From sequence record KP869112: 64,000 nucleotides of DNA. The stretch is one strand, 5' to 3'. Positions 7,364-18,045 of this stretch are shown here, piece by piece. The DNA comes from Escherichia coli O157 typing phage 14. The position numbers were made by a program, and so were the translations under genes. The first letter of the stretch is position 1; each line of letters begins with the position of its first letter. A model generated the notes under the pieces. That model was not told the origin of the DNA. It worked only from the letters and a program-made list of their open reading frames with translations, and ran no database searches.

Positions 7364-8246
7364 CGTTTATGTTCGGGCAAGGTCGCTAGTCTTGCCCCGC
7401 CATTTTCAGGCAGCTGCATGTCTCCATGCAGACCAGACTATATCTTATGAATGTGTAAATACTCTGCCGCTCTAAGAATAGTTTCCTCATCTTCTTGGAA
7501 GAAACCTAAAGCTCTGTTGCATTTATCACAAAGCAACCCTCTTACAGCACCAGTTTTATGGTCATGATCAACACAAAAGAAATCTCTGTACCCTTGCGTC
7601 CTATACTCATTAAGAGATATTCTACAAATGGCACACTTATGATCTTGATCTGAGAGTAGACGATAGTATTCATCTTTTGTTATGTGAAATTTCTTCTCAA
7701 TCTGATAAAACTTTTCACACATCTTACACCTGTTCGTAACCAGATATACTTTACCATAGTCACGTTTTGTGTAAAAACTATCAGCGAGCATACTTTCATG
7801 ACAAGATTTGCATTCAAAAAGTTCACCTTTCTTCAGCAAGTCTTGAATAAACAATGCTGCGTCATCTCTCTTAACCATATTTTTGTTTTTACGAGATCCA
7901 CCCTTCCTGTAGTACATATAGCATTCCTTGCATGTGCCTGAGTATCCATCCTTGCTCTCAGATGATAAAAAGAAATCATCAATAGGCAGAACTCTTTGGC
8001 AATCCATACATTTTTTAGTATTACACATTCACCCTCCCGTTTCGAATCGCTTGATTCTACGTCTTTCGACTAGTCGTTGAACGTTCATCCTCTCGGATGC
8101 TTCGCTGCGGATTATCTAAATTAACACACTGTTACCATACCTTCGATCTCTCTTCGAAGCCTCTATTATGTTACCATAACAGGTTGGTGGTGTCAATAAT
8201 AAAGATTTCCCCGCAATTAGGGAGGTTTTACGAGAGCTACAAATTA
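7364..8246 (-). mobile_element. group I self-splicing intron interrupting terL
   Basis: On the minus-strand RNA all four conserved group I elements are present: P AAUUGCGGGGAAA (plus 8206-8218), Q AAUCCGCAGC (8104-8113), R GUUCAACGACUA (8071-8082), S AAGAUAUAGUCU (7435-7446). Exon 1 ends GAGGGU and pairs with intron GCUCUC as a P1 helix with U.G at the splice site; intron ends in G. Confidence 0.8.
7438..8028 (-). CDS. intron-encoded endonuclease VII-family (HNH-type) homing endonuclease
   Basis: 196 aa with CVDHDHKTGAVRGLLCDKCNRALG (the DHDH...RGLLC..CN signature of T4 endonuclease VII-like nucleases) and Cys-rich N-terminus; ORF lies between intron elements R and S and its last codons overlap S. 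Confidence 0.75.
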   Translation of the reverse strand: MCNTKKCMDCQRVLPIDDFFLSSESKDGYSGTCKECYMYYRKGGSRKNKNMVKRDDAALFIQDLLKKGELFECKSCHESMLADSFYTKRDYGKVYLVTNRCKMCEKFYQIEKKFHITKDEYYRLLSDQDHKCAICRISLNEYRTQGYRDFFCVDHDHKTGAVRGLLCDKCNRALGFFQEDEETILRAAEYLHIHKI

Positions 8247-8959: not shown

Positions 8960-9354
8960 CTACCCTCCTGATTAATACTCTCATTATAAATATCTATAAG
9001 CTGATCAGGGAGTGTTGACTTCTTACCTTCAGGGGATTGGAGGTAGATAATCTGCTTTTCTCTACCTGCCCTCTCAGCTATATTTAATTTATCCTGCAGA
9101 TCAGAAAGAGATTTTTCAAGGTTTTTAACCTCCTCTGCGTGGCCCATTTTAATCTTGTCGGCCTGCTTTTGTTGCTGATCAAGGATCCGTTCCCACTTTA
9201 ACTCTGTTACTGACACACCCTCCTGGTAGGCATCATTAAGCTTGGAGTTAAACCAATACACGGCCCCAAGATAAGCTGTACCTATCGCAGCTGCAAAAAC
9301 TAAACCTTTTATGATCCCTTTATACCTACTCAGCCATGTTAAAACTGAAATCAT
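8956..9354 (-). CDS. putative i-spanin (Rz-like)
   Basis: 132 aa; one N-terminal transmembrane helix (GLVFAAAIGTAYLGAVYWF) followed by a charged coiled-coil-like domain. Confidence 0.55.
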   Translation of the reverse strand: MISVLTWLSRYKGIIKGLVFAAAIGTAYLGAVYWFNSKLNDAYQEGVSVTELKWERILDQQQKQADKIKMGHAEEVKNLEKSLSDLQDKLNIAERAGREKQIIYLQSPEGKKSTLPDQLIDIYNESINQEGR

Positions 9355-9372
9355 TTTAAGGCTCCAGAAACG

Positions 9373-9410
9373 AAAAAACCCCGCAGCTATGCAGCTAACG
9401 GGGCGGGTTA
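9373..9410 (-). terminator. rho-independent terminator
   Basis: Minus-strand hairpin CCCCG...CGGGG followed by TTTTTT, downstream of the 9460-9729 gene. Confidence 0.5.
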
Positions 9411-9459
9411 AAATTGAGTAACCTAAATAGATCGAAACTAACTAAAAGGAGACTAATAC

Positions 9460-9729
9460 TTATCGAGGCACTCGGTGGATGATTCTAACAGTAACTGCAT
9501 TTTCATTCATCAAGTATGCATCTACATCTCTGTAAATATAAAACTTCTGCTCACTATCAACAACACAAGCTACCGCCCCTTCAGAGTTGTCTTCAAAAAA
9601 GACCACCACTGCATCGCAGCTGAGTTCATGATATGACTCTCGAAGATTTACAGCCAGAGGATTGAAATCGTCACGAAAATCTAAGGTATGGGTTGGATTT
9701 ACACGCTCTACAATTTTAAGTGTATACAT
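9460..9729 (-). CDS. hypothetical protein
   Basis: Start trimmed to ATG at 9729 (AAGGAA SD) because the longer ORF overlaps tRNA-Pro. Confidence 0.4.
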   Translation of the reverse strand: MYTLKIVERVNPTHTLDFRDDFNPLAVNLRESYHELSCDAVVVFFEDNSEGAVACVVDSEQKFYIYRDVDAYLMNENAVTVRIIHRVPR

Positions 9730-9775
9730 TTTAAAGGTTCCTTTTGTTTGTATATGTTTAAAGTATAACTGAAAG

Positions 9776-9852
9776 TGGTCTCCACGGAGTGATTCGAACA
9801 CTCGACCTCCTGATCCCAAATCAGGCGCTCTACCAAGCTGAGCTACGCGGAG
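9776..9852 (-). tRNA. tRNA-Pro (anticodon UGG)
   Basis: Hand-folded cloverleaf: 7-bp acceptor stem, T-loop TTCGAAT, anticodon loop UUUGGGA, encoded CCA. Confidence 0.75.
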
Positions 9853-9863
9853 TATTTATTATT

Positions 9864-9938
9864 TGGTGGCCCTGGGTGGAATTGAACCACCGTCTGGCGA
9901 TTATGAGTCGCTTGCTTGAACCTTCCAGCTACAGGGCC
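9864..9938 (-). tRNA. tRNA with CAU anticodon (Met or Ile2)
   Basis: Acceptor GGCCCTG/CAGGGCC, T-arm GGTGG-TTCAATT-CCACC, anticodon arm GCGACUCAUAAUCGC, encoded CCA. The anticodon arm resembles the E. coli ileX type as I recall it, so Ile2 is possible. Confidence 0.7.
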
Positions 9939-9939
9939 A

Positions 9940-10015
9940 TGGTGCTGATGGCAGGACTTGAACCTGCAACCTATTGATTACAAATCAATTGCACTACCAA
10001 TTGTGCTACATCAGC
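9940..10015 (-). tRNA. tRNA-Thr (anticodon UGU)
   Basis: Acceptor GCTGATG/CATCAGC, D-stem GCAC/GTGC, anticodon stem ATTGA/TCAAT with loop UUUGUAA, T-loop TTCAAGT, CCA. Confidence 0.75.
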
Positions 10016-10022
10016 AAAAAGG

Positions 10023-10119
10023 TGCTAGGTGATGGAATCGAACCACCTATGTATTCAACGACTACCTCGTCTATTTTCAGGATTAAAAATCCTCGCCCTT
10101 GCCAAAGGGCTTACCTAGC
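10023..10119 (-). tRNA. atypical tRNA-like gene (Lys-like UUU anticodon loop, 29-nt variable region)
   Basis: Perfect 7-bp acceptor GCTAGGT/ACCTAGC, D-arm GCCC-TTTGGCAA-GGGC, T-arm GGTGG-TTCGATT-CCATC; anticodon arm GAGGA-UUUUUAA-UCCUG (G-G mismatch at 27-43). About 29 nt sit between anticodon and T stems, including an ACGA/TCGT hairpin. No complete encoded CCA. Confidence 0.5.
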
Positions 10120-10216
10120 TCAGTATGTTGACCATGTTGCTAGTCGGCGATGACGACTGTAACATTTGATAATCCGGTTCTGCTTCCGGCTTTCGCTTAA
10201 TTACAAGGTCAACAAT

Positions 10217-10308
10217 ATGGCCGAGGGTAATGGAATCGAACCATCATCAAGTCATCCTCAACGGGACGGTTTTCAAGACCGCTTGAGCACCATTGCTCCC
10301 TACCCTCA
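10217..10308 (-). tRNA. tRNA-Ser (anticodon UGA)
   Basis: Class II tRNA, 92 nt: acceptor TGAGGGT/ACCCTCG, anticodon stem GCGGT/ACCGT with loop CUUGAAA, long variable arm, T-loop TTCGATT, CCA. Confidence 0.7.
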
Positions 10309-10422
10309 TTTATAAACAATACTGATAATGACACTGATTTTCGAGCAGTTAGTGACTAGTATAAACGACGATAAATATCAATGCCATTATCTGTATGATT
10401 TATGCATTTAAAACTATAAATT

Positions 10423-10509
10423 TGGTGGGGAGTGGTGGAGTCGAACCACCCGAGTCGCAATGACAATAGATTTACAGTCTACACCGCTACCTCTACGGGA
10501 TAACTCCCC
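10423..10509 (-). tRNA. tRNA-Tyr (anticodon GUA)
   Basis: Acceptor GGGGAGT/ACTCCCC, anticodon stem GTAGA/TCTAT with loop CUGUAAA, long variable arm (class II, bacterial Tyr type), T-arm GGTGG-TTCGACT-CCACC, CCA. Confidence 0.7.
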
Positions 10510-10513
10510 AATT

Positions 10514-10588
10514 TGGCACCCCGTACTGGACTCGAACCAGTGTCAACGGCTTAGAAGGCCGCTGCTTTATCCACTAAGCTAACAGGGC
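10514..10588 (-). tRNA. tRNA-Arg (anticodon UCU)
   Basis: Acceptor GCCCTGT/ACGGGGT (two G.U pairs), D-stem GCTT/AAGC, anticodon stem GCGGC/GCCGT with loop CUUCUAA, T-arm ACTGG-TTCGAGT-CCAGT, CCA. Confidence 0.7.
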
Positions 10589-10684
10589 ACTGGGTGGCTT
10601 TCTTTTACACCTTAGCCGCCAGAAAAGGTGGGAGACCATGTTTACAATATTACACTGTTAAGCAAAGTTTGTCAAGAAAATATT

Positions 10685-11023
10685 TTAGCTATTGCTAACA
10701 GGTTGTATTTCTGTGGTAAATGGCATAAAAGGTGCTGGTTTTTCAGCCTCTTCTACTACCACCTCTTCCTCTTCACCAAACATCTCATCATATTCTTCCT
10801 GCATTCGGTCTGCCTTATCAAGAACATACTCTGCAATGCTTTGACGAATATTTTGTTTGGTTTTCGGGTCCAACATCAGCTCTCTTAAAACTTTGTGAGC
10901 TTCTGGAACCATCGCTATAAAAGATTCCTTCATATCAAGGATGTTCTTCTCTAGCTGAATGGCGTTGGACTCCTCTTTCAGAGGTCTGCCTCTACGGCGA
11001 CGCTTTTTAGTTGTATCCGCCAT
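10685..11023 (-). CDS. hypothetical basic protein (possible DNA-binding)
   Basis: Start at internal ATG 11023 (GGAGG SD). N-terminus KKRRRRGRP, acidic C-terminus. Confidence 0.45.
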   Translation of the reverse strand: MADTTKKRRRRGRPLKEESNAIQLEKNILDMKESFIAMVPEAHKVLRELMLDPKTKQNIRQSIAEYVLDKADRMQEEYDEMFGEEEEVVVEEAEKPAPFMPFTTEIQPVSNS

Positions 11024-11367
11024 GTTTCCTCCATTATCACGTGATAGGTGGATTTTATCATAGCAAATACTGATTGTCAAGTTCGCCGCAGGGTGGTATT
11101 CCCTGCGACTTGTCCAGCGTCCTGGACCAGCAAGACCCAACAAGTGGGTTACCAGAGCCCATTACCGCGCTTTGGCTAGACCTTATTACAGGTTGGCTGG
11201 GGTCACATCGTCATGTGCTGGCTGCCCCTACCATTTTAAGTGTGGTGCACTATCAAGCCCTCTAAGGGGAACTCAGACTTCTCCGAACCCTGTTTCAAAG
11301 CATCCGGAGATAAAGCCATCAAATTCATCTTTAAATTGGATATTCATCATGATACACGAAAACAACC

Positions 11368-11610
11368 TCATTGTAAAGCACAAATAAATAAAACATACTT
11401 AATTTGTTTGTTATCGGGCTCAGGGTAGAAGTAGAAGATCTTGCTATCACCGATCTGAACACCACCATCCCAACAGCATAACCCATAACCAGTATTCATA
11501 CAAGCTAAGTCGTTGGCAAAATCTATTGCATCATCCAGTGCACGAAATTCACCTTCATCTTCTAAATAATCCTCATTCATGGAACGAAAAACGAGCTTAA
11601 CCTTAAACAT
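11368..11610 (-). CDS. hypothetical protein
   Basis: 80-aa minus-strand ORF in a co-oriented gene block; no motif recognised. Confidence 0.35.
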   Translation of the reverse strand: MFKVKLVFRSMNEDYLEDEGEFRALDDAIDFANDLACMNTGYGLCCWDGGVQIGDSKIFYFYPEPDNKQIKYVLFICALQ

Positions 11611-11686
11611 AGCATTACCTGTAGACCTCGTAAGTTAAAATTGTATCACATCATATTGCAGATCTTATCAGGTAACATTATTTTTG

Positions 11687-11896
11687 TCAACAGATTCCGG
11701 CCTTATCCCTCCTGTCTGCATATTCTTTAATCGCAACCTCATCTGCATTGGTTACTAAATCTTCAAAGTAACTCTCAAGCTCCTCGTCAATGTCAGGAAA
11801 CCAACTCTTTTTCCTGTCAGTGTGAATAGCAGACTTGTTGAATTTATTACAGTTCTTTGCTACCGGATTGTTCATTAATCGCCCCTCAGCGTTCAT
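11687..11896 (-). CDS. hypothetical protein
   Basis: 69-aa minus-strand ORF; no motif recognised. Confidence 0.3.
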   Translation of the reverse strand: MNAEGRLMNNPVAKNCNKFNKSAIHTDRKKSWFPDIDEELESYFEDLVTNADEVAIKEYADRRDKAGIC

Positions 11897-12464
11897 AGTA
11901 AATCTTATTTAACATTACCTCATCCTTTGCAGAAAGGATATCAAGATATGCATCACCAAATCTTCCTGCAACAACCTCTGCATGATACATCACTTCGTTA
12001 ACATCGTCAAGAGTGATAACCGGATGACCATATCTTTCTGAATATTGTCTCAGGGTGCGATGTAACGAGTCGTCATCATATGCAGACTTTTTAATATCAC
12101 AAACACGACGAATAGCCTTGATGTCGAAAAAACCTGTGCGATACCACCCAAGAAAAAGGTTTCGTGCAGTGTCAACATCTACATTGATACCATCAAGAAC
12201 CTTATCTACAAGATAGCTGTCATCCTTTGGACCAGCGTCCTTAGTGCGAATGTAGTTGCCATCTTTTCCAGGCGATAGCTCCTTCTCATCCCCAACCTGC
12301 ATGCCATCATTTGGCGGTGTTAGCCACTTATCCGGATGCTTACGATCACGAGCGTTAGAATGATTACGCTGGAAACCGGGCTTCCACTTGAAAGTTTTCT
12401 CCATCTGTTCTTCATTCTGATAACGTTTTGCAATCTTTTCACGGTCATCTTTGCGTGAACCCAT
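11886..12464 (-). CDS. hypothetical protein
   Basis: 192-aa ORF downstream of the 700-bp non-coding block; no motif recognised. Confidence 0.45.
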   Translation of the reverse strand: MGSRKDDREKIAKRYQNEEQMEKTFKWKPGFQRNHSNARDRKHPDKWLTPPNDGMQVGDEKELSPGKDGNYIRTKDAGPKDDSYLVDKVLDGINVDVDTARNLFLGWYRTGFFDIKAIRRVCDIKKSAYDDDSLHRTLRQYSERYGHPVITLDDVNEVMYHAEVVAGRFGDAYLDILSAKDEVMLNKIYYER

Positions 12465-12968
12465 AGCTGCCTCCTCTTCAAGTTATAGAAAAACTCACTG
12501 TATCGCTTTGTAACGAGCTTTTCTATCAAACTGGTGCGATTGCCTTACCTGGTATAGTTTATATAGCTGTGGGGCTATTTAGGGGCCTCCTTGTCCGTTT
12601 CCACACATAAACTTTATCCAAACTCGCGCGGGAGACTCTTAACCGACTCCTTACGGCGCTGGCAAGCTTTCGTCGGTGGTCCACATTAGTGCTCGGCCTT
12701 TGGCCTGCGCTATCGCTTCGCTCCCACACATGTTAACATACCTGCATGTATGCACTTCTGTTATTGTGTGCACTATGGAGGCCCGGCATCTCGCCCCTCG
12801 TAGGCGAGTGCCAATGAAGGGCCGACACTATCCATAGTAAGCAATAAATTTAAAACATGGTACTTAGGATCTAGTATATTCTACATAAGTTAAGTATATG
12901 TACTTTAGTACCATAAGTACTAGATCTTTTATTTTTTATTATTTAGTTATTTTAGTTATATTCTTTAT

Positions 12969-13093
12969 GTGTCCGTATCACGGACAGTTAGTGTCCGTAT
13001 TACGGGCAGATGTGTCCGCGTGACGGACAGTAGTGTCCGTATTACGGGCAGATGTGTCCGCGTGACGGACAGTGGTGTCCGTATCACGGACAG
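12969..13093. repeat. array of six 19-bp palindromic repeats (iteron/operator-like)
   Basis: Units at 12969, 12991, 13012, 13033, 13054 and 13075 with 21-22 bp period. Three variants: A gtgtccgtatcacggacag, B gtgtccgtattacgggcag, C gtgtccgcgtgacggacag, in order A-B-C-B-C-A. Each unit is an inverted repeat (TGTCCG...CGGACA). An AT-rich stretch flanks it at 12923-12968. Confidence 0.85.
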
Positions 13094-13167
13094 TTGATAG
13101 CTTCTGTCCCATATCGAACATAAAACATACGAATCCTTATAGTACAGATATTTAAGTTTTTACTGGT

Positions 13168-13518
13168 CTAACCAGTTGTTGACATTCGAATAACTTCTTC
13201 TGGTGGCAAAACTTTGGAAAATGTGCATCTTTTACCTCTCCCCTGTGTGGATGTTTCAACCACTCCTGCACATTCTAAAGTTTTAACGCACGCTGCTGCT
13301 TTTGTTTTCTTTATCCCAACATCTGCTGCAATTTTCCTTGTGCTGGGTGTGAAGCGTGAATTTCCTCCAAGTTTATACCAGTTGTGCAGGTAGCAGTATA
13401 CGATCTTGTCATACAAGTCAAGAACAACAACCTCCCCAGTTGTGTCATTCAAAACTTTTGACATAGACAGTATTTCAAGGGGGACTTTAAGATATAGCAG
13501 CTTATCCCCATCTTTCAT
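13168..13518 (-). CDS. hypothetical protein, possible winged-helix DNA-binding protein
   Basis: 116 aa; segment STRKIAADVGIKKTKAAACVKTLECAGVV looks like a helix-turn-helix. Sits beside the repeat array. Confidence 0.35.
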   Translation of the reverse strand: MKDGDKLLYLKVPLEILSMSKVLNDTTGEVVVLDLYDKIVYCYLHNWYKLGGNSRFTPSTRKIAADVGIKKTKAAACVKTLECAGVVETSTQGRGKRCTFSKVLPPEEVIRMSTTG

Positions 13519-13565
13519 ATCTCCTGATTCTCCTTGTGTGGCAATTTTCTTTAAAATAGCAGGGA

Positions 13566-14120
13566 TTACTCCCCGCTGTCAATAGCAAAACTCATTGCAA
13601 TACGGTATGCCTCTTCTAATGGTAAGAGTCTCCCCCACACATCCCAACCGACATCAAGCTGCCTGCCAAACAACTGTTGTGTGGTTCCGTGAGCATGACC
13701 GAACAGTTGGACTGATCCGTGAGGCTTTCTGTTCCACTTTGCAAATTGGTAATGGCTCATACAGATCAAATTCTTGTTGTGGCGAAGCTCGTAATAATCT
13801 ACAACCTCGTGATAGAACTCTTTCATAATTCTGACAGTCGTCCTTGTGTCATGGTTGCCACGAACAAGAATAATATGTCCGTTCAACATATTTAGAATAT
13901 CTGGAAGTAATTTGTTGATATTCTTATCATTAGTGCACGCAATATCTCCCAAGTGGAACACAGTGTCTGCAGGTGACACAACAGAGTTCCACTCGGCGAT
14001 GATTCCCGCATTCATACTGTCAAGATTGTGATCATACTGAGATCTGTGTTTTTGACATGAATCAAACTCCATGACCCGCTGGTGGAGAAAGTGTGTGTCG
14101 CTTGTTACAAAGTATTTCAT
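13566..14120 (-). CDS. calcineurin-like metallophosphoesterase (candidate RNA-end healing phosphatase)
   Basis: Motifs SDTHF, HLGDIA, GNHD and FGHAHG in the order typical of binuclear metallophosphoesterases; start at ATG 14120, just after the kinase stop. Confidence 0.65.
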   Translation of the reverse strand: MKYFVTSDTHFLHQRVMEFDSCQKHRSQYDHNLDSMNAGIIAEWNSVVSPADTVFHLGDIACTNDKNINKLLPDILNMLNGHIILVRGNHDTRTTVRIMKEFYHEVVDYYELRHNKNLICMSHYQFAKWNRKPHGSVQLFGHAHGTTQQLFGRQLDVGWDVWGRLLPLEEAYRIAMSFAIDSGE

Positions 14121-14127
14121 ACATTCC

Positions 14128-14538
14128 TCATTTAAGTTTAATGCAGTTTTTAAGCTGGCGTTCCATACGATCCACAACCTTGTCTGGAACATCATGAATG
14201 CTTTTATTACCGTGGCGGTTTTCAACCACGATCACGGTATAACTATACCCATGACTGATTGCCATGTCAACATATTCCTGCACATGTTTTTCTTTTGTAA
14301 ACGTATTACTTACCACGATACGGTCGTATCCCATACGCATCATATCTTCTACGTTATCTTTGCACCATTTTGCTGCGAGTGTTACTTTACTTGCATCCCA
14401 GTTGTAATTGCCGTCATCGTCATACCAGAACATGTCGTTCTCAAAATGTGGATACAGACCTTCTAAAGATAGCGCATTTGCCAGTGTTGATTTGCCAGAC
14501 CCTGGCAGACCACGCACGATATATAGCATTTTAGACAT
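14128..14538 (-). CDS. pnk: polynucleotide 5'-kinase (T4 Pnk kinase-domain-like)
   Basis: P-loop GLPGSGKST, then acidic NDMFWYDDDG, IVVSNTF and IHDVPDKVVDRM, matching the layout of the T4 polynucleotide kinase domain as I recall it. Confidence 0.65.
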   Translation of the reverse strand: MSKMLYIVRGLPGSGKSTLANALSLEGLYPHFENDMFWYDDDGNYNWDASKVTLAAKWCKDNVEDMMRMGYDRIVVSNTFTKEKHVQEYVDMAISHGYSYTVIVVENRHGNKSIHDVPDKVVDRMERQLKNCIKLK

Positions 14539-14638
14539 AGCAATCCTCCGTTTTAATTTTAATGATAGTATACCTAACTGTTTTGTTAATTTCAAGTGTT
14601 GACACTAGGTTATTTGTGTGGCAGGATAGACTGACAAA

Positions 14639-15574
14639 ATGACAAATGAGGAACGTATGATGAAGTATTTTAATGCAGATGACCTAGTAGACAAAGGTCT
14701 TGTAACCAGTCGGTATTATCCAGATCTTGGATTAAAGATCTATAAATATGCCAGAAAAGTATTCTACAACAATCTGTGGCATTTGTCTCCGCGTTTACTG
14801 GAGTGCCGAGGTATTGTTGTTGGCAATGAGGGGAATGTTGTGGCATGGCCTTTCACAAAAGTATTCAACTTAGGAGAAAACTCCACCAACCTACCGGACA
14901 GTAAACTTGTTACTGCGGTAGAGAAAAAGAACGGATTCCTCGGTGTGGTATCATCTCATAAAGGTGAACTATTGTTCTCAACAACCGGGTCTCTTGATTC
15001 TCCATATTGTAACCTTGCAAAGGAAACCATCCAAGAGCAATGTGGTAATTTAGATCTTATCAAGAAGGTTATGGGCAATGAAAACATGACATTCATGTTT
15101 GAAATTTGTCACCCTTCAGATCCGCATATTGTTCAAGAAGACCATGGCGCATATTTGATAGGTTGCAGATATAATGATTCTGGAATAATGCTACCAGAAG
15201 CAGCTTTAGATGGGATTGCCAAATACCTTGGTGCAAAACGTCCTCACACTGTGCGTGAAATCCCGTTCAGCTATGCAAAAGAATTAGCTGCAGAAACAAG
15301 GGGCGAAGGGTATATGATCCGTAAGCCTTACTACCCTTATGACCTGCAGCTGAAGATCAAGTCTCCATACTATTTGGCACGGAAGGCCGTAATGAGAGGT
15401 AAAGCATGGAAGATTTGGGATGACGATATTTTTAAACGTGTTGACGAGGAGTTTTACGGTATGGTAAAATTTATTCGTAGCAACTATACAGAAGATGTGT
15501 GGAATTGCTTATTAGAGCAGGAGCGTCGCGAGATACTGGACTGCTATTTCCACAACGAGGACTATATGCAATGA
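14639..15574 (+). CDS. rnlA: RNA ligase, T4 Rnl1 family
   Basis: LLECRGIVV, KVFNLGEN and the motif I lysine in VEKKNGFLGVV (KxNG) match the T4 RNA ligase 1 N-terminal region as recalled (ALECRGIMF, KFFNLNEN, TKEDGSL); also EGYMIR and KIKSP motifs. Confidence 0.8.
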   Translation: MTNEERMMKYFNADDLVDKGLVTSRYYPDLGLKIYKYARKVFYNNLWHLSPRLLECRGIVVGNEGNVVAWPFTKVFNLGENSTNLPDSKLVTAVEKKNGFLGVVSSHKGELLFSTTGSLDSPYCNLAKETIQEQCGNLDLIKKVMGNENMTFMFEICHPSDPHIVQEDHGAYLIGCRYNDSGIMLPEAALDGIAKYLGAKRPHTVREIPFSYAKELAAETRGEGYMIRKPYYPYDLQLKIKSPYYLARKAVMRGKAWKIWDDDIFKRVDEEFYGMVKFIRSNYTEDVWNCLLEQERREILDCYFHNEDYMQ

Positions 15575-15921
15575 AGAAGTGGATTGTGTGGCTTGATGAT
15601 TTTAGAGATCCGTCAGATTATGGACTCCCAGACGCTCTGTGGCTAAAGAATTCTTCTGAATTTATGGATTTTCTTAATGATAAGAGAAAGCTCTACAGAC
15701 GCGTATCTGAATGGTATTTTGACAATGATCTAGGTGAAGTTCTTGAAGGGTACGACTGCTTCTCTGCGCTAGAGGAGAAACTTGTATTCGGAAAGCCACC
15801 ACTTATTGACAACGTGATTATTTTCGTGCATACTTCTAATCCATCGGCAGCTCGTAAATTTATGCTTGCTGCTGACTCATTCAAGAAGTTTGGAATAGAG
15901 ATCAAACAAAACATCTACTAA
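15571..15921 (+). CDS. hypothetical protein
   Basis: Start at ATG 15571 overlapping the ligase stop (ATGA); no motif recognised. Confidence 0.4.
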   Translation: MKKWIVWLDDFRDPSDYGLPDALWLKNSSEFMDFLNDKRKLYRRVSEWYFDNDLGEVLEGYDCFSALEEKLVFGKPPLIDNVIIFVHTSNPSAARKFMLAADSFKKFGIEIKQNIY

Positions 15922-15929
15922 GGACATTT

Positions 15930-16691
15930 ATGCGACGACTTATTGTTATTTCTGGTGCTGGTTTGAGCGCAGAATCTGGTATTCCCACCTTCCGATCTGG
16001 TAGCACTGCAATGTGGGAGAATTTCAGCATCGATGAGGTGTGCAACATCCACACCTTTGCCAAGAACTACTATAAGGTGCATGACTTTTACAATGCACGT
16101 CGTGTAGCGCTGGGCAGTGTTGATCCTAACCTTGCACATCTTCGGATCGCTGAGTGGTATTCCCGCTGGTCTGGTCGTGTGATCAACCTTACCACCAATG
16201 TAGATGATTTGCTGGAGCGTGCTGGTGTAAAACATGAAGATATTTTACATGTCCACGGGTATTTGCCTGAAATCACCTACGAAGATGCTGAAGGTAATGA
16301 TGTAATTAAAAATATCGGATACACGGAGGTAGATACAGGCAAGTATACCTGGGTTAAGCCCAATGTAGTGTTCTTCGGCGAGGTTGCTCCTAAGTATACA
16401 GACATGTATGACCTGTTGACATCTCTCACCAGCAATGATATGGTGATCCTAGTGGGTTGTTCTAACACAGTTATTAATTTTAACTGGGAATTGTTTCCTG
16501 CTACTTGTAAAGGAACAAAACTGCTGATTGTAAACAAGTATGATTCGCAGAGTGCAGATGGAAGTGGCATTTCACGTAGCGACCTTTATCAATATGAGGA
16601 TCGCGGGATCCCTGTATGGTTTAACGGTGCTGTTGACGCTTTCTCTGATAAAGCATTTATTGAAACTGTAGAAAACTTTATGGAACTTTAA
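15930..16691 (+). CDS. Sir2-family (sirtuin-like) NAD-dependent protein
   Basis: Canonical sirtuin motifs GAGLSAESGIPTFR, TTNVDDL, HVHG and VVFFGE, but no Cys4 zinc ribbon between the HG and FGE motifs. Confidence 0.75.
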   Translation: MRRLIVISGAGLSAESGIPTFRSGSTAMWENFSIDEVCNIHTFAKNYYKVHDFYNARRVALGSVDPNLAHLRIAEWYSRWSGRVINLTTNVDDLLERAGVKHEDILHVHGYLPEITYEDAEGNDVIKNIGYTEVDTGKYTWVKPNVVFFGEVAPKYTDMYDLLTSLTSNDMVILVGCSNTVINFNWELFPATCKGTKLLIVNKYDSQSADGSGISRSDLYQYEDRGIPVWFNGAVDAFSDKAFIETVENFMEL

Positions 16692-16704
16692 AAGGAGACC
16701 TTTA

Positions 16705-17418
16705 ATGCTGAATACTAAACTGATCGACAACCTGGAAAAACTGTCTCAGCCTGAAAACTACCTTTGGTCTGCCAATTGGGTGGAAAACTGGAACCGTGTG
16801 GCAGCTAAAGTGAAAAAATCATACACACCATTCGAATTACAGCTTAGCTTCATTGAGGAAGAGTTCAATGAGGTTTTGGAAGAGCTGGAGAAAGGTGATG
16901 GTGGAGATCACCTGCTAAAAGAGGCCTGCGATCTTCACGTTGTCACAAGTTATGCCGCTTATCTTGTTAATGATAATCACGAAAAGTGGTCAAACCTGTT
17001 TGATAATCCGCGAGGTCTTAAGTTCAAGATCGGCGAGTTCTATGATACACTGATCGCTGCGAAAAACACCTCTAAGCAAAGAGCGTCTGCTTACCGCTTA
17101 GCAGAGTTGTCAACAGCTTTGCTGTTCCAGCTTCGCGGCGATGTGTGCGGGATGATGCGTAAGGTTCTCAAATCGAATGACAGCAAGTTTGCACGGGTCA
17201 ACCATCTACGGTATTCACACGGTGCCAGTGCAGATATGCCTGCTGAACAACTAATCGAGTTGGAGATTAAAGATCTTGAACGACGCTTTGATGGTCGATA
17301 TGAAGGTTTTGTTGCCAAGGAAGAATTCTACAACGGTAATAAAGTTATCATATTCCTTGACAGTAAAGGTAAGATCATGAAGCCTTCGAGCTTCAAGGAT
17401 GTAACAGAGTATATTTAA
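16705..17418 (+). CDS. MazG-like nucleotide pyrophosphohydrolase
   Basis: EExxE...ExxD pattern (FIEEEFNEVLEEL...KEACDLHVV) typical of all-alpha NTP pyrophosphatases. Confidence 0.5.
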   Translation: MLNTKLIDNLEKLSQPENYLWSANWVENWNRVAAKVKKSYTPFELQLSFIEEEFNEVLEELEKGDGGDHLLKEACDLHVVTSYAAYLVNDNHEKWSNLFDNPRGLKFKIGEFYDTLIAAKNTSKQRASAYRLAELSTALLFQLRGDVCGMMRKVLKSNDSKFARVNHLRYSHGASADMPAEQLIELEIKDLERRFDGRYEGFVAKEEFYNGNKVIIFLDSKGKIMKPSSFKDVTEYI

Positions 17419-17480
17419 CAACATAGCCGGGATTACCCGGCTTTACTTATTATGGAAAGTATGCAGTGAGGTAGTTAGTT

Positions 17481-17789
17481 ATGTACAAGCATTCCAGAGA
17501 TCTTGAAAAAGATGCTGTGTTTGGCGATCAGATGAAGGAGCTGATCAAACTTATAGGTAGAATGGAAGATAAGTTTGACACTAAAATCTACATCGATAGC
17601 AAGATCTTCAACCACAAAATATGGACAAATGTGTGTGTTGGGCTACATGGTGATAAAGATATTGTAAATTTGGTTGTAATAAAGTTCATAGTGTGGCAGA
17701 ATAGGACTATACGTTATTCCGATCCACACTTACTTGTTTATCCTATAAAAGACCTACTACAGAAGGAGGACTGCAATGCCGTTATTTAA
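17481..17789 (+). CDS. hypothetical protein
   Basis: 102-aa plus-strand ORF; no motif recognised. Confidence 0.35.
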   Translation: MYKHSRDLEKDAVFGDQMKELIKLIGRMEDKFDTKIYIDSKIFNHKIWTNVCVGLHGDKDIVNLVVIKFIVWQNRTIRYSDPHLLVYPIKDLLQKEDCNAVI

Positions 17790-18045
17790 TCTTGCTAAAC
17801 CTGTAGAAGCCCACCAGTTTGACGGAAGCTCTTCATCAGTAGCTGATCTGCAACGGTGGATTGATACAGGTGTGTTTACATCGTCACCTGTTCGGACCAG
17901 AGATATTCGTCGCATGTGTGAGCTTGTCGAGCCTTTTGGTAACCTTGTCTTGTACCAGGGAGATTGGCTAGTTGACTTTATGGGAGACTGGTTGGTAATG
18001 AGTAAAGAAGAGATGTTTAAAATTTTTAAGGAAGAGGCCGAGTAA
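17776..18045 (+). CDS. hypothetical protein
   Basis: 89-aa ORF abutting the ligase start; no motif recognised. Confidence 0.35.
   Translation: MPLFNLAKPVEAHQFDGSSSSVADLQRWIDTGVFTSSPVRTRDIRRMCELVEPFGNLVLYQGDWLVDFMGDWLVMSKEEMFKIFKEEAE

Follow-up and report, generated by a model that had tools for sequence, protein, structure and literature searches.

The combination of a kinase, a phosphoesterase and a ligase is the signature of repair of RNA breaks with 5'-OH and cyclic-phosphate ends, as in T4 Pnkp-Rnl1, bacterial Pnkp and Trl1. In phage T4, tRNA repair by Pnkp (PseT) and Rnl1 (RnlA) counters the anticodon nuclease PrrC. Bacterial Pnkp systems, such as Pnkp-Hen1 of Clostridium thermocellum and Pnkp1-Rnl-Hen1 of Capnocytophaga, bring together a kinase, a metallophosphoesterase and a ligase, and fungi and plants have Trl1 (LIG-KIN-CPD) with Tpt1. 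Closest of all is a sirtuin-centred RNA-repair neighbourhood with phage V5 as its prototype ('phage V5 / Proteus phage Mydo'), already described computationally by Iyer, Burroughs, Anantharaman & Aravind 2022 (Viruses 14:1977, section 3.7.3), who suggested a Tpt1/KptA-like action for the sirtuin.

The present analysis concerned a 64,000-nucleotide stretch (the window) of Escherichia coli O157 typing phage 14 (KP869112), in which an earlier note had recognised an RNA healing-and-sealing cassette with a Sir2 gene attached. The cassette region is 99.5% identical to positions 65243-69641 of Escherichia phage V5/rV5 (NC_011041), where its genes are gp076-gp081, and it is the locus that Iyer et al. 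2022 described. It was confirmed that the cassette is real, that its outline had been read correctly and that it was already known; its catalytic roles are predicted. The genes named in the note lie where it had put them (ORFs; Pfam/PHROG matches):

13566-14120, minus strand: metallophosphoesterase gp076, 184 aa; calcineurin-like, binuclear
14128-14538, minus strand: kinase gp077, 136 aa; stand-alone P-loop kinase, polynucleotide-kinase clade
14539-14638: divergent intergenic region, 100 bp, between the leftward and rightward units
14639-15574, plus strand: predicted RNA ligase gp078, 311 aa; Rnl1-clade, ATP-dependent
15571-15921, plus strand: cREC protein gp079, 116 aa; Pfam cREC_REC PF20274
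15930-16691, plus strand: sirtuin gp080, 253 aa; CobB/Sirt5-like, without the zinc cysteines
16705-17418, plus strand: MazG-superfamily-like pyrophosphohydrolase gp081, 237 aa; weak assignment
17425-17442: G+C-rich stem-loop with T-rich tail; terminator-like, found on both strands
9776-10588, minus strand: seven tRNA genes (ARAGORN, Rfam, rV5 and Bas54 annotations); context, not counted as part of the cassette

The leftward unit comprises the kinase and phosphoesterase genes, and the rightward unit those for the ligase, cREC, Sir2 and MazG. This divergent arrangement had been noted correctly, but not the size of the gap, which is 100 bp because the kinase starts at the ATG at 14538, with a GGAGG Shine-Dalgarno sequence just upstream; the 45-bp length given earlier was rejected, as it arises only from an in-frame TTG (14595) upstream of that ATG. 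Two sigma-70-like sites on the minus strand (14595-14567 and 14589-14562), each with 10/12 matches, are consensus matches only. The BASEL annotation places the ligase start at 14657 instead of 14639. Ligase stop and cREC start overlap by 4 bp, and the next gaps are 8 bp and then 13 bp; this tight operon spacing speaks for the favoured reading below, in which the cREC, sirtuin and MazG-like genes are co-transcribed with the ligase. The Sir2 gene does follow the 116-aa ORF (PF02146, 6.9e-28), but the cassette does not end there, since the sixth, MazG-like gene begins after the 13-bp gap. Judged by position only, the stem-loop at 17425-17442 is likely to be the end of the rightward transcription unit; terminator-like sites in the region are as numerous as in shuffled sequence.

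All three enzyme identities held up in profile and motif searches and, for the ligase, in fold searches, which together place the predicted ligase in the Rnl1/Trl1 clade. It matched RNA_lig_T4_1 (PF09511) in Pfam at 9.1e-15 (scoring 55.6 bits where 28.3 is the cut-off), and its profile (24 sequences) matched the T4 Rnl1 structures 2c5u, 9do4 and 5tt6 at about 2e-13. The best Foldseek matches of its AlphaFold2 model (pLDDT 88.7) were fungal Trl1 ligase domains and T4 Rnl1, at E of about 1e-12; the Trl1 ligase domain 6n0t came top (E 5.8e-13, TM 0.68), T4 Rnl1 fitted about as well as Trl1, and no Pnkp ligase-domain structure was among the top 50 fold matches. The invariant residues R57, K74, F76, K96, G99, E155, E223-G224, K239 and K241 align with T4 residues, and counterparts were found for all ten residues reportedly essential in T4 Rnl1 (R54, K75, F77, K99, G102, E159, E227, G228, K240 and K242). 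The ligase differs from T4 Rnl1 in length (311 against 374 aa), is far from T4 RnlA by the equivalog model (38 bits, cut-off 242), and lacks the motif Ia lysine, with T115-T116 in place of T4 S118-K119. Towards the C-terminus it has a region of some 65 aa, where the T4 domain that confers tRNA specificity has about 120 aa; with so short a region, tRNA specificity is not to be assumed.

The phosphatase slot is filled, as the earlier note had it, by a separate metallophosphoesterase and not by the fused HAD domain of T4. Gp076 matched Metallophos (5.6e-7) and Metallophos_2 (1.6e-6) in Pfam and PHROG 547 (1.7e-51), its profile (19 homologues) matched Aquifex aq_1665 (PDB 1xm7) at 5.6e-24, and all metal-binding motifs are intact (invariants D8, H10, G58-D59, G88-N89-H90, H123, G141-H142 and H144); it is predicted to be a healing enzyme for 2',3'-cyclic or 3'-phosphate ends. 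The nearest solved structure, aq_1665, is an uncharacterised protein. The kinase gp077, stand-alone where that of T4 is fused, matched AAA_33 (Pfam, 1e-10) and PHROG 505 'polynucleotide kinase' (4.7e-10). Among solved structures, the best full-length match of its profile was Pnkp1 4xrp (4.3e-8), and further matches were T4 Pnk 1ly1 (8.6e-7), the C. thermocellum Pnkp kinase 4gp7 (1.1e-6) and mammalian PNKP (1.8e-4). Gp077 is predicted to be a 5'-OH RNA kinase, with invariant G15-K16 and D35, the latter aligned to T4 D35; the absence of an arginine at the position of T4 R38 counts against this function.

Compared with the known systems, the locus shares with T4 the three chemistries (predicted here), the ligase clade and the kinase P-loop with Asp35, but adds the cREC, sirtuin and MazG-like genes. 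The likeness to bacterial Pnkp put forward earlier stands for domain content, and extends to the kinase matches and to cellular relatives of the phage ligase, whose fusions follow the kinase-MPE-ligase order of Pnkp. It does not stand for the phosphoesterase subfamily, which is aq_1665-like and unlike that of the cellular fusions (hhalign gave a probability of 6.9% for a match with the domain fused in cyanobacteria). The rV5 locus also differs in that its genes for the three are unfused and split between two divergent units and its ligase is Rnl1-type, and no Hen1 methyltransferase was found among the adjacent cassette genes scanned with Pfam and PHROG. With Trl1 and Tpt1 there is the fold match of the ligase domain and a parallel of activities, in which the ligase, the kinase, cREC (predicted to be a cyclic phosphodiesterase) and the NAD+-using sirtuin would be the counterparts of LIG, KIN, CPD and Tpt1. 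The parts, however, are non-homologous, with a receiver fold (cREC) against 2H and a sirtuin against the ART-fold Tpt1, and rV5 additionally has the metallophosphoesterase.

The 116-aa ORF, which had been called unknown, is cREC (PF20274, 9.1e-14), a cyclic-phosphate-processing receiver defined by Iyer et al. 2021 (Viruses 13:63) and predicted to open cyclic phosphates. The sirtuin, to which the earlier note had assigned no role, matched E. coli CobB (1s5p) at 2.4e-21 and keeps GAGxSxESGIPTFR, FYNARR, TTNVD and HVHG, but has no cysteine at the CobB zinc-ligand positions and reaches 123 bits against a cut-off of 243 for the CobB-type NCBIfam model. FYNARR corresponds to the Tyr-Arg pocket, which in CobB and Sirt5 binds an anionic group. 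Gp081 is weakly assigned as a MazG-superfamily-like pyrophosphohydrolase: it matched PHROG 671 at 5.4e-22, Pfam PRA-PH only at 0.084, and by profile HisE (1yvw) at E 0.036, the alignment covering a conserved EExxE...D motif.

Centring the survey on the ligase reverses the sirtuin-centred emphasis of Iyer et al. 2022. Among 57 viral loci whose flanks reach at least 3 kb to either side, 46 carry a phosphoesterase no more than 3 kb from the ligase, 48 a kinase and 43 both, in the orders MPE-LIG-KIN and KIN-LIG-MPE; cREC (10/57), the sirtuin (11/57) and MazG are occasional partners. The kinase is fused to the ligase N-terminus in loci L039-L054, Leptolyngbyaceae cyanobacteria carry AAA_33, Metallophos and RNA_lig_T4_1 in one polypeptide of about 740-770 aa, and Cardiobacteriaceae have a kinase-ligase fusion adjoining a phosphoesterase gene. 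Adjacency and fusions support the view, already taken in the earlier note, that kinase, phosphoesterase and ligase are one functional unit, to whose conserved core cREC, Sir2 and MazG are lineage-restricted additions. Genes for translation rescue and counter-defence abound in the neighbourhoods of relatives: tRNAs, tmRNA, an Rnl2-type ligase, NAMPT and PRPP-synthetase-like genes and one for a protein with an RF-1 domain. The seven tRNAs said to lie about 3 kb away were recovered with ARAGORN, 2978 bp from the phosphoesterase gene: Pro, Met/Ile-CAT, Thr, an atypical Lys-UUU-like tRNA, Ser, Tyr and Arg, one of them with a 26-nt insertion. In related loci, tRNAs occur within 8 kb of the ligase in 29/50. 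This linkage is loose, and common descent confounds it; the single island of repair genes and tRNAs that the earlier note had in view is a conjecture.

The favoured reading, given a probability of roughly 0.65, is an RNA healing-and-sealing pathway in two divergent units that would repair RNA cut by host defence nucleases; the activities, substrate and defence role are proposed from the gene structure, families, active sites and coupling described above. The published prediction, the neighbourhoods of relatives and the placing of cREC and of the sirtuin clade beside RNA-end enzymes also speak for it. The core would be the equivalent of T4 Pnkp and Rnl1 divided among three proteins: metal-independent ribonucleases leave a 2',3'-cyclic or 3'-phosphate, which the metallophosphoesterase would take off, the kinase would convert the 5'-OH end to a 5'-phosphate, and the Rnl1-clade ligase would seal the break with ATP. 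The lineage additions would probably broaden the range of healable 3' ends, with cREC opening cyclic phosphates and the sirtuin perhaps taking off a 2'-phosphate with NAD+, as suggested by Iyer et al. 2022. Targets would be RNAs belonging to the translation machinery, with tRNA anticodon loops as the most plausible candidates.

That the locus instead joins two unrelated neighbours, the RNA-repair triad and an independent Sir2/cREC/MazG module for NAD+/ADP-ribose metabolism or protein deacylation (a CobB-like deacylase in host take-over, for example, or breakdown of immune signals that are nucleotides or derive from ADP-ribose), is rather unlikely. The closest relatives of the sirtuin are the protein deacylases CobB and Sirt5, its clade adjoins the triad in 12/38 loci and occurs without it in 26/38, cREC is predicted to process ADP-ribose cyclic phosphate also and is often fused to Nudix (Iyer et al. 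2022), and accessory or counter-defence genes cluster in phages whatever their pathway, as do NAMPT and PRPP-synthetase beside the triad. Yet in several lineages and gene orders the cREC gene separates ligase from kinase or directly precedes the phosphoesterase gene, and here its start overlaps the ligase stop; the sirtuin is far under the CobB equivalog cut-offs and without the zinc module, and its other recurrent neighbour, which follows it in T5-like contigs, is again an RNA-end phosphatase, the HAD_SAK_2 'RNA repair' protein. This last association, the retained NAD-binding motifs, catalytic His and FYNARR pocket, the coupling or close spacing of cREC and sirtuin with the ligase, the 6n0t match, and the 43 loci with NAD+ salvage genes no more than 8 kb from the triad favour the published prediction of a yeast/plant-type main route (Iyer et al. 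2022). In that scheme cREC would turn the 2',3'-cyclic phosphate into 3'-OH/2'-PO4 and the kinase would supply the 5'-P; the Trl1-like ligase would then seal with the 2'-PO4 left at the junction, the sirtuin would strip it with NAD+ like Tpt1/KptA, and clearing the by-product derived from ADP-ribose would fall to MazG or the phosphoesterase. As the main route this is unlikely: no sirtuin is known that acts on RNA 2'-phosphate, T4 Rnl1 fits the ligase model comparably, and in most of the loci that have it the sirtuin shows no linkage to the triad (the distance is about 30 kb in one phage). Since most triad phages are without both cREC and sirtuin, the ligase family is not generally dependent on 2'-PO4; nor was non-orthologous displacement detected, because the 25 commonest of 44 neighbour families had no KptA, 2H or Macro gene in the corresponding position. 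A phosphoesterase able to strip the phosphate fully would make a 2'-phosphate route redundant.

It is quite improbable that the triad serves something other than nuclease-damaged tRNA, be it mRNA/rRNA repair, processing of phage tRNA precursors, or a structural role of the ligase in tail-fibre attachment like that of T4 gp63. The last is implied by an inherited annotation ('RNA ligase 1 and tail attachment protein' in rV5 records), and the loose tRNA linkage, the tRNA whose insertion might require processing, and the lack of an evident equivalent of the full T4 tRNA-specificity domain point the same way. The three-enzyme combination and the fusions of its activities, which indicate a single pathway of break repair, argue against it, as do transposon data for the close relative Bas54, whose orthologues of the cassette genes are 84-98% identical. 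The Bas54 ligase tolerated insertions at 56/60 TA sites, so it is not essential for morphogenesis; for T4 rnlA, that study reports an essential N-terminal domain.

According to the same study, the Bas54 orthologues tolerate insertions, and are thus dispensable, on E. coli K-12, and none of the six genes changed significantly in one resampling comparison of K-12 with a clinical isolate. T4 pseT, encoding polynucleotide kinase, is conditionally dispensable, which the Bas54 result on K-12 matches. Such dispensability fits a conditional counter-defence role, and also no function on those hosts. If the cassette repairs RNA cut by host defence nucleases, it would therefore matter only on hosts with such nucleases.

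The cassette identified here corresponds to genes gp076-gp081 of Escherichia phage V5 (rV5). The 4.4 kb surrounding it was 99.5% identical to the V5 genome (NC_011041, 65243-69641), and 90-99% identical to about 120 further Vequintavirus records. The five ORFs described in the earlier note were all found where it had placed them, including the attached Sir2 gene, and the seven phage tRNAs it had claimed were also present. The layout of the region in the window is as follows.

Features of the cassette and neighbouring tRNA genes
9776-10588: seven tRNA genes
13566-14120, minus strand: phosphoesterase ORF (gp076)
14128-14538, minus strand: kinase ORF (gp077), with ATG at 14538 behind a GGAGG Shine-Dalgarno sequence
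14639-15574, plus strand: ligase ORF (gp078)
15571-15921, plus strand: 116-aa cREC ORF (gp079), its start overlapping the ligase stop; Pfam cREC_REC (PF20274), 9.1e-14
15930-16691, plus strand: Sir2 (sirtuin) ORF (gp080)
16705-17418, beginning 13 bp after Sir2: MazG-like gene (gp081); PHROG 671, 5.4e-22
17425-17442, after the MazG-like gene: stem-loop

Two details of the original description had to be revised. The kinase starts at ATG 14538, so the divergent intergenic region is 100 bp rather than 45 bp, a figure that derives from an upstream in-frame TTG, and the 116-aa ORF, previously called unknown, is a match to Pfam cREC_REC. With the corrected kinase start, the identity of cREC, and a sixth gene, the cassette is seen to be two operons that diverge: kinase and phosphoesterase are read leftward, and ligase, cREC, Sir2 and MazG rightward. 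Scans for promoters (17 sites, against 12.0 ± 3.8 in shuffled sequence) and terminators (3 sites, against 3.0) were no richer than shuffled sequence, so the limits of these transcription units are drawn only from gene spacing and position. An Rfam scan of positions 9000-18000 returned tRNAs only, with no match inside the cassette.

The cassette is already known, both as a published computational prediction and in standard annotation, and its novelty is therefore low. Existing GenBank, RefSeq and BASEL labels for gp076-gp078 are phosphoesterase, ATPase or polynucleotide kinase, and RNA ligase, and those for gp079-gp081 are hypothetical, Sir2-like or sirtuin deacetylase, and nucleotide pyrophosphohydrolase or hypothetical. 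Iyer et al. 2022 (Viruses 14:1977) described the neighbourhood and proposed that the sirtuin removes 2'-phosphates, like KptA/Tpt1. Both that study and Iyer et al. 2021 (Viruses 13:63) call the activities uncharacterised, and no biochemical study of the cassette enzymes was found in the literature.

The assignment of gp078 to the Rnl1 family was upheld by Pfam, profile and fold tests. It matched the full model (1-227) of PF09511 with 55.6 bits (cut-off 28.3, E 9.1e-15). Searching PDB sequences with the ligase or the kinase as a single sequence gave no meaningful match, so that profiles were needed for both. A ligase profile of 24 homologues (43-50% identity) matched T4 Rnl1 (2c5u, 9do4, 5tt6) at about 2e-13 across the nucleotidyltransferase domain. 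When aligned to 2c5u, the invariant residues R57, K74, F76, K96-x-N98-G99, E155, E223-G224 and K239-x-K241 had as their T4 counterparts R54, K75, F77, K99/G102, E159, E227/G228 and K240/K242, giving the protein the motif I KxxG lysine nucleophile, motifs III, IV and V, and the upstream residues specific to Rnl1. Wang, Ho and Shuman reportedly defined this same T4 set as essential in 2003. The motif Ia lysine (T4 S118-K119), also essential in T4 Rnl1, is missing, and an invariant T115-T116 is found instead. The top Foldseek matches of an AlphaFold2 model (pLDDT 88.7) were Trl1-LIG (6n0t, 8rbj, 6n67) and the same three T4 Rnl1 structures, with E 6e-13 to 4e-11, while Rnl3, Rnl5 and Rnl2 structures were weaker matches. 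The score against the T4 RnlA equivalog (NCBIfam TIGR02308) failed, with 38 bits against a cut-off of 242, over positions 32-250 of the 373 in the profile. As the protein is also 63 residues shorter than T4 Rnl1, and its helical C-terminal 65 residues have no sequence alignment to the T4 tRNA-specificity domain, it is a distant member of the Rnl1 clade and not an orthologue of T4 RnlA. Its predicted activity is ATP-dependent sealing of 3'-OH and 5'-PO4 RNA ends; favouring breaks in tRNA anticodon loops would be a further trait of its family.

The place of gp077 in the polynucleotide-kinase clade was likewise upheld, by profile matches, a conserved P-loop and D35. The best relatives of a 19-sequence profile among solved structures were polynucleotide kinases: Pnkp1 of the bacterial Pnkp1-Rnl-Hen1 complex (4xrp, 4.3e-8), T4 polynucleotide kinase (1ly1, 8.6e-7), the Clostridium thermocellum Pnkp kinase domain (4gp7, 1.1e-6), 1ltq (2.7e-6) and mammalian PNKP (3u7g, 1.8e-4); the nominal top match, 9d2f, covered P-loop segments only. 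The Walker A residues G13-S-G15-K16-S17 and D35, which aligns with T4 D35 (1ly1), were invariant or nearly so, and on these similarities the protein is placed in the polynucleotide 5'-kinase clade of P-loop kinases. In the T4 kinase, Arg38 binds the acceptor-nucleotide phosphate, and R122 and R126 are lid arginines. The Arg38 position is occupied by Trp in the phage kinase and by His, Tyr or Phe in its homologues, while the lid region carries a near-invariant ENRHG followed by an invariant H115-x-V117-P118, before which the T4 profile alignment ends.

The third enzyme, gp076, is a calcineurin-type metallophosphoesterase, as had been claimed: all five metal-binding motifs (D8-x-H10, G58-D59, G88-N89-H90, H123 and G141-H142-x-H144) were invariant across 19 homologues, and it scored 30.6 bits against PF00149 (cut-off 21.5). 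Its sole strong relative in the PDB was an uncharacterised Aquifex protein, aq_1665 (1xm7, 5.6e-24).

Coupling of the three genes was examined in 80 viral loci with relatives of the ligase (35-89% identity), in which ORFs were labelled by iterated profiles. In the 57 loci whose two flanks each extended 3 kb or more, the phosphoesterase lay within 3 kb of the ligase in 46, the kinase in 48, and both in 43, mostly directly adjacent in the order phosphoesterase-ligase-kinase or kinase-ligase-phosphoesterase. cREC and the sirtuin were present in only 10 and 11 of the 57, respectively, all of these being contigs of the Vequintavirinae-like type, about 145 kb long. The conserved core is the triad of kinase, phosphoesterase and ligase, and Sir2, cREC and MazG are optional. 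The strongest evidence here that the three act in one pathway came from gene fusions. One group of phage contigs encodes a single protein of about 430 aa in which the kinase precedes the ligase. The cellular ligase family is rare (33 loci among 185,579 species), but includes, in Leptolyngbyaceae cyanobacteria, a single protein of about 740-770 aa comprising AAA_33, Metallophos and RNA_lig_T4_1 domains, with the ligase C-terminal, and, in Cardiobacteriaceae, a kinase-ligase fusion of about 500 aa followed by a phosphoesterase gene.

Loci with fusion proteins (coordinates within each locus)
L039-L054 (e.g. L039, 7530-8822): phage contigs, kinase-ligase
L101-L129 (e.g. L109, 3546-5861): further fusion-protein loci
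L099, 4371-5861: further fusion-protein locus

These fusions bear out part of the comparison with bacterial Pnkp that had been drawn for the cassette. The kinase of the cyanobacterial protein is homologous to that of the phage (hhalign 95.6%), whereas its phosphoesterase belongs to another subfamily (probability 6.9%, over the GD...GNHD segment only), so that a phosphatase domain of the Pnkp type (lambda-phosphatase-like) was not found in the phage, and that part of the comparison fails. Bacterial Pnkp-Hen1 also differs in having kinase, phosphatase and ligase in a single polypeptide rather than in three separate genes, and none of the ten neighbouring proteins scanned matched Hen1 or a methyltransferase.

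The surroundings of the triad were often rich in genes related to tRNA and NAD+. Of 50 related loci, 29 had tRNA genes no farther than 8 kb from the ligase, and the neighbourhoods of relatives also held NAD+ salvage genes, tmRNA, an Rnl2-type ligase and a protein with an RF-1 domain. Phage tmRNA genes near the ligase were seen in L050 (14168-14570), L054 (13208-13610) and L067 (16341-16663), and tRNAs with stop-codon-reading anticodons (CTA, or TTA in L063) lay a few kb from it; tmRNA or such tRNAs are listed for L061, L063, L064, L067 and L071. In 43 loci, NAMPT (PF04095) and PRPP-synthetase-like genes of NAD+ salvage lay no more than 8 kb from the triad, their order and orientation taking several forms; the breadth of this linkage is an observation of the present survey. 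Examples fall within L004-L082 and include the following; neither gene was found by tblastn in the 64-kb window.

NAMPT and PRPP-synthetase-like genes near the triad (coordinates within each locus)
L023, 9556-10440 and 11816-13669
L004, 1640-4214

Several other elements were noted in the window. An atypical 97-nt tRNA (10023-10119, minus strand) was reported by ARAGORN as 'tRNA-???' and scored 35.5 bits against Rfam tRNA (gathering score 29). By eye and by folding (z = -3.66) its acceptor stem and T arm are normal, the anticodon loop reads UUUUUAA (UUU, for Lys), and the extra arm, about 26 nt long, forms a hairpin by itself. It is labelled tRNA-Lys(AAA) in BASEL phages, is missing from the rV5 annotation, and is present also in one related locus (L003). 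PrrC and PARIS both target tRNA-Lys(UUU), and it may be speculated that the atypical gene supplies a nuclease-evading replacement. A CAT-anticodon tRNA (9864-9938, minus strand) is tRNA-Met according to ARAGORN and rV5, and tRNA-Ile (ATA) according to BASEL, a call that implies lysidine modification. At 12967-13093, six tandem copies of the 21-bp sequence ATGTGTCCGTATCACGGACAG, each with the palindrome GTCCG-N5-CGGAC (TRF score up to 203), lie 75 bp past the stop codon of gp075 (13168-13518, minus strand), an HTH_36/DUF6945 protein labelled 'replication initiation protein' in PHROGs; the array looks like a set of iterons or operators. An HNH endonuclease ORF (7438-8028, minus strand) lies inside the rV5 terminase large-subunit gene, which is joined from three pieces, and this points to mobile-element interruptions.

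Of the accessory genes, cREC scored above the PF20274 cut-off, and has a receiver fold in which the active-site positions keep the conserved acidic residues. It is predicted to be a cyclic phosphodiesterase for RNA 2',3'>P or ADP-ribose 1''-2'' cyclic phosphate. The domain was defined through its operonic links to RNA ligases (Iyer et al. 2021, Viruses 13:63), and the family was experimentally uncharacterised as of Iyer et al. 2022 (Viruses 14:1977). Its position varies: in some arrangements it separates ligase from kinase, and in others it immediately precedes the phosphoesterase. It does not always accompany a ligase, since in L090 and L094 neither ligase nor kinase could be recognised close to cREC and the phosphoesterase, and L095 carries cREC alone. 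The nearest relatives of the sirtuin are E. coli CobB and human Sirt5 (2.4e-21), and it scored 98.2 bits against PF02146. Its NAD motifs GAGLSAESGIPTFR and TTNVD, and the catalytic-His motif HVHG, align with CobB (1s5p), and the Tyr-Arg pocket (FYNARR) is kept, but the Cys4 zinc module is absent, with no Cys where the CobB zinc ligands align, and its best NCBIfam score was 123 bits against a CobB equivalog cut-off of 243. In the MazG-like protein, searched for metal-binding EExxE...ExxD helices, E52, E53, E56, D65 and D76 were invariant, but Pfam PRA-PH (0.084, below cut-off) and HisE (1yvw, E 0.036) gave weak scores; it is a tentative member of the MazG / all-alpha NTP pyrophosphohydrolase superfamily. 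Some relatives with the sirtuin but not cREC (L010, 9349-9837; also L008 and L015) have a 162-aa ORF between kinase and sirtuin, in a slot that cREC might otherwise fill. It was considered as a NADAR or other known NAD-linked domain, but had no Pfam match, only PHROGs 652 and 11222 of unknown function. Among 133 representative neighbour ORFs of related loci, KptA/Tpt1, 2H and Macro domains, sought as replacements for sirtuin or cREC, did not appear in the 25 most frequent of 44 Pfam families.

The best-supported reading of the cassette is a T4-like healing-and-sealing pathway in which three separate proteins would carry the steps, the phosphatase step falling to a metallophosphoesterase, and cREC, Sir2 and MazG would form a lineage-specific accessory branch. 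The earlier proposal of a tRNA repair island stands as regards the enzymes and their coupling (fusions, and both partners in 43 of 57 loci), while a tRNA substrate and an anticodon-nuclease target are what we infer from the T4 precedent, and genomic context also suggests them.

The zinc-less, CobB-like sirtuin and cREC may together form a branch for RNA 2'-phosphate transfer that depends on NAD+, matching Tpt1/KptA in function but with a different fold. Such a branch, to which we give a probability of roughly 0.2, would couple phage RNA repair to NAD+ supply. The part of it that was published beforehand, a sirtuin removing 2'-phosphates in the manner of Tpt1 (Iyer et al. 2022, Viruses 14:1977), is similarly doubtful. 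The NAD site and anion pocket that the protein has kept, and the zinc module that it has lost, would fit this idea, as would repeated pairing with RNA-end phosphatases, for example in T5-like contigs, where the same sirtuin clade is paired with a HAD_SAK_2 "Swiss-army-knife RNA repair" phosphatase. Against it, most phages with the triad have neither cREC nor sirtuin, which means that a 2'-phosphate cannot be a general requirement of the ligase family, and a route of the Trl1/Tpt1 style is an add-on at most. Slightly less improbable, though still unlikely, is that sirtuin, cREC and MazG constitute a separate NAD/ADP-ribose or deacylation module, unrelated to the triad and simply next to it; the sirtuin clade adjoins the triad in 12 of 38 loci, and lies about 30 kb away in one phage.

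Transposon data are available for a close relative, Bas54 (MaxBurger), whose cassette is 93.4% identical to that of the window in DNA and 84-98% in proteins. In the HIDEN-SEQ screen (bioRxiv 10.1101/2025.11.20.689424), the reference library gives the following values.

TA sites hit and essentiality calls for the Bas54 cassette
bas54_0206, MazG-like: 35/40, non-essential
bas54_0207, sirtuin: 48/51, non-essential
bas54_0208, cREC: 16/21, intermediate
bas54_0209, ligase: 56/60, non-essential
bas54_0210, kinase: 33/36, non-essential
bas54_0211, phosphoesterase: 26/27, non-essential

One comparison by resampling, of K-12 with a clinical isolate, gave log2 changes of 0.13-0.43 with adjusted p of at least 0.75. 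The transposon data show no phenotype for the cassette on the hosts covered so far. This matches what is expected of a conditional counter-defence system, and is not positive evidence for one. Since the Bas54 ligase tolerates insertions, an essential role in tail-fibre attachment, as its inherited product name would have it, can be rejected.

The solid part is thus the three-enzyme core supported by gene fusions, and the survey adds that this core is conserved and that NAD+ salvage genes are its frequent neighbours. The remaining interest lies in the biochemistry of cREC and the sirtuin, for which activities are predicted only. If the proposed branch is real, these two proteins would provide a second, Trl1-style healing route for cyclic-phosphate breaks, and could reveal two new activities, a receiver-fold cyclic phosphodiesterase and an RNA-acting sirtuin, while coupling of RNA repair to NAD+ could explain the NAMPT and PRPP-synthetase-like genes near the triad in 43 loci. 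If the prediction for the cassette as a whole holds, Vequintavirinae would carry a modular RNA-repair kit unlike the T4 model, which would help to account for the ability of these phages, with their broad host range and relevance to therapy, to evade defences that cut tRNA.
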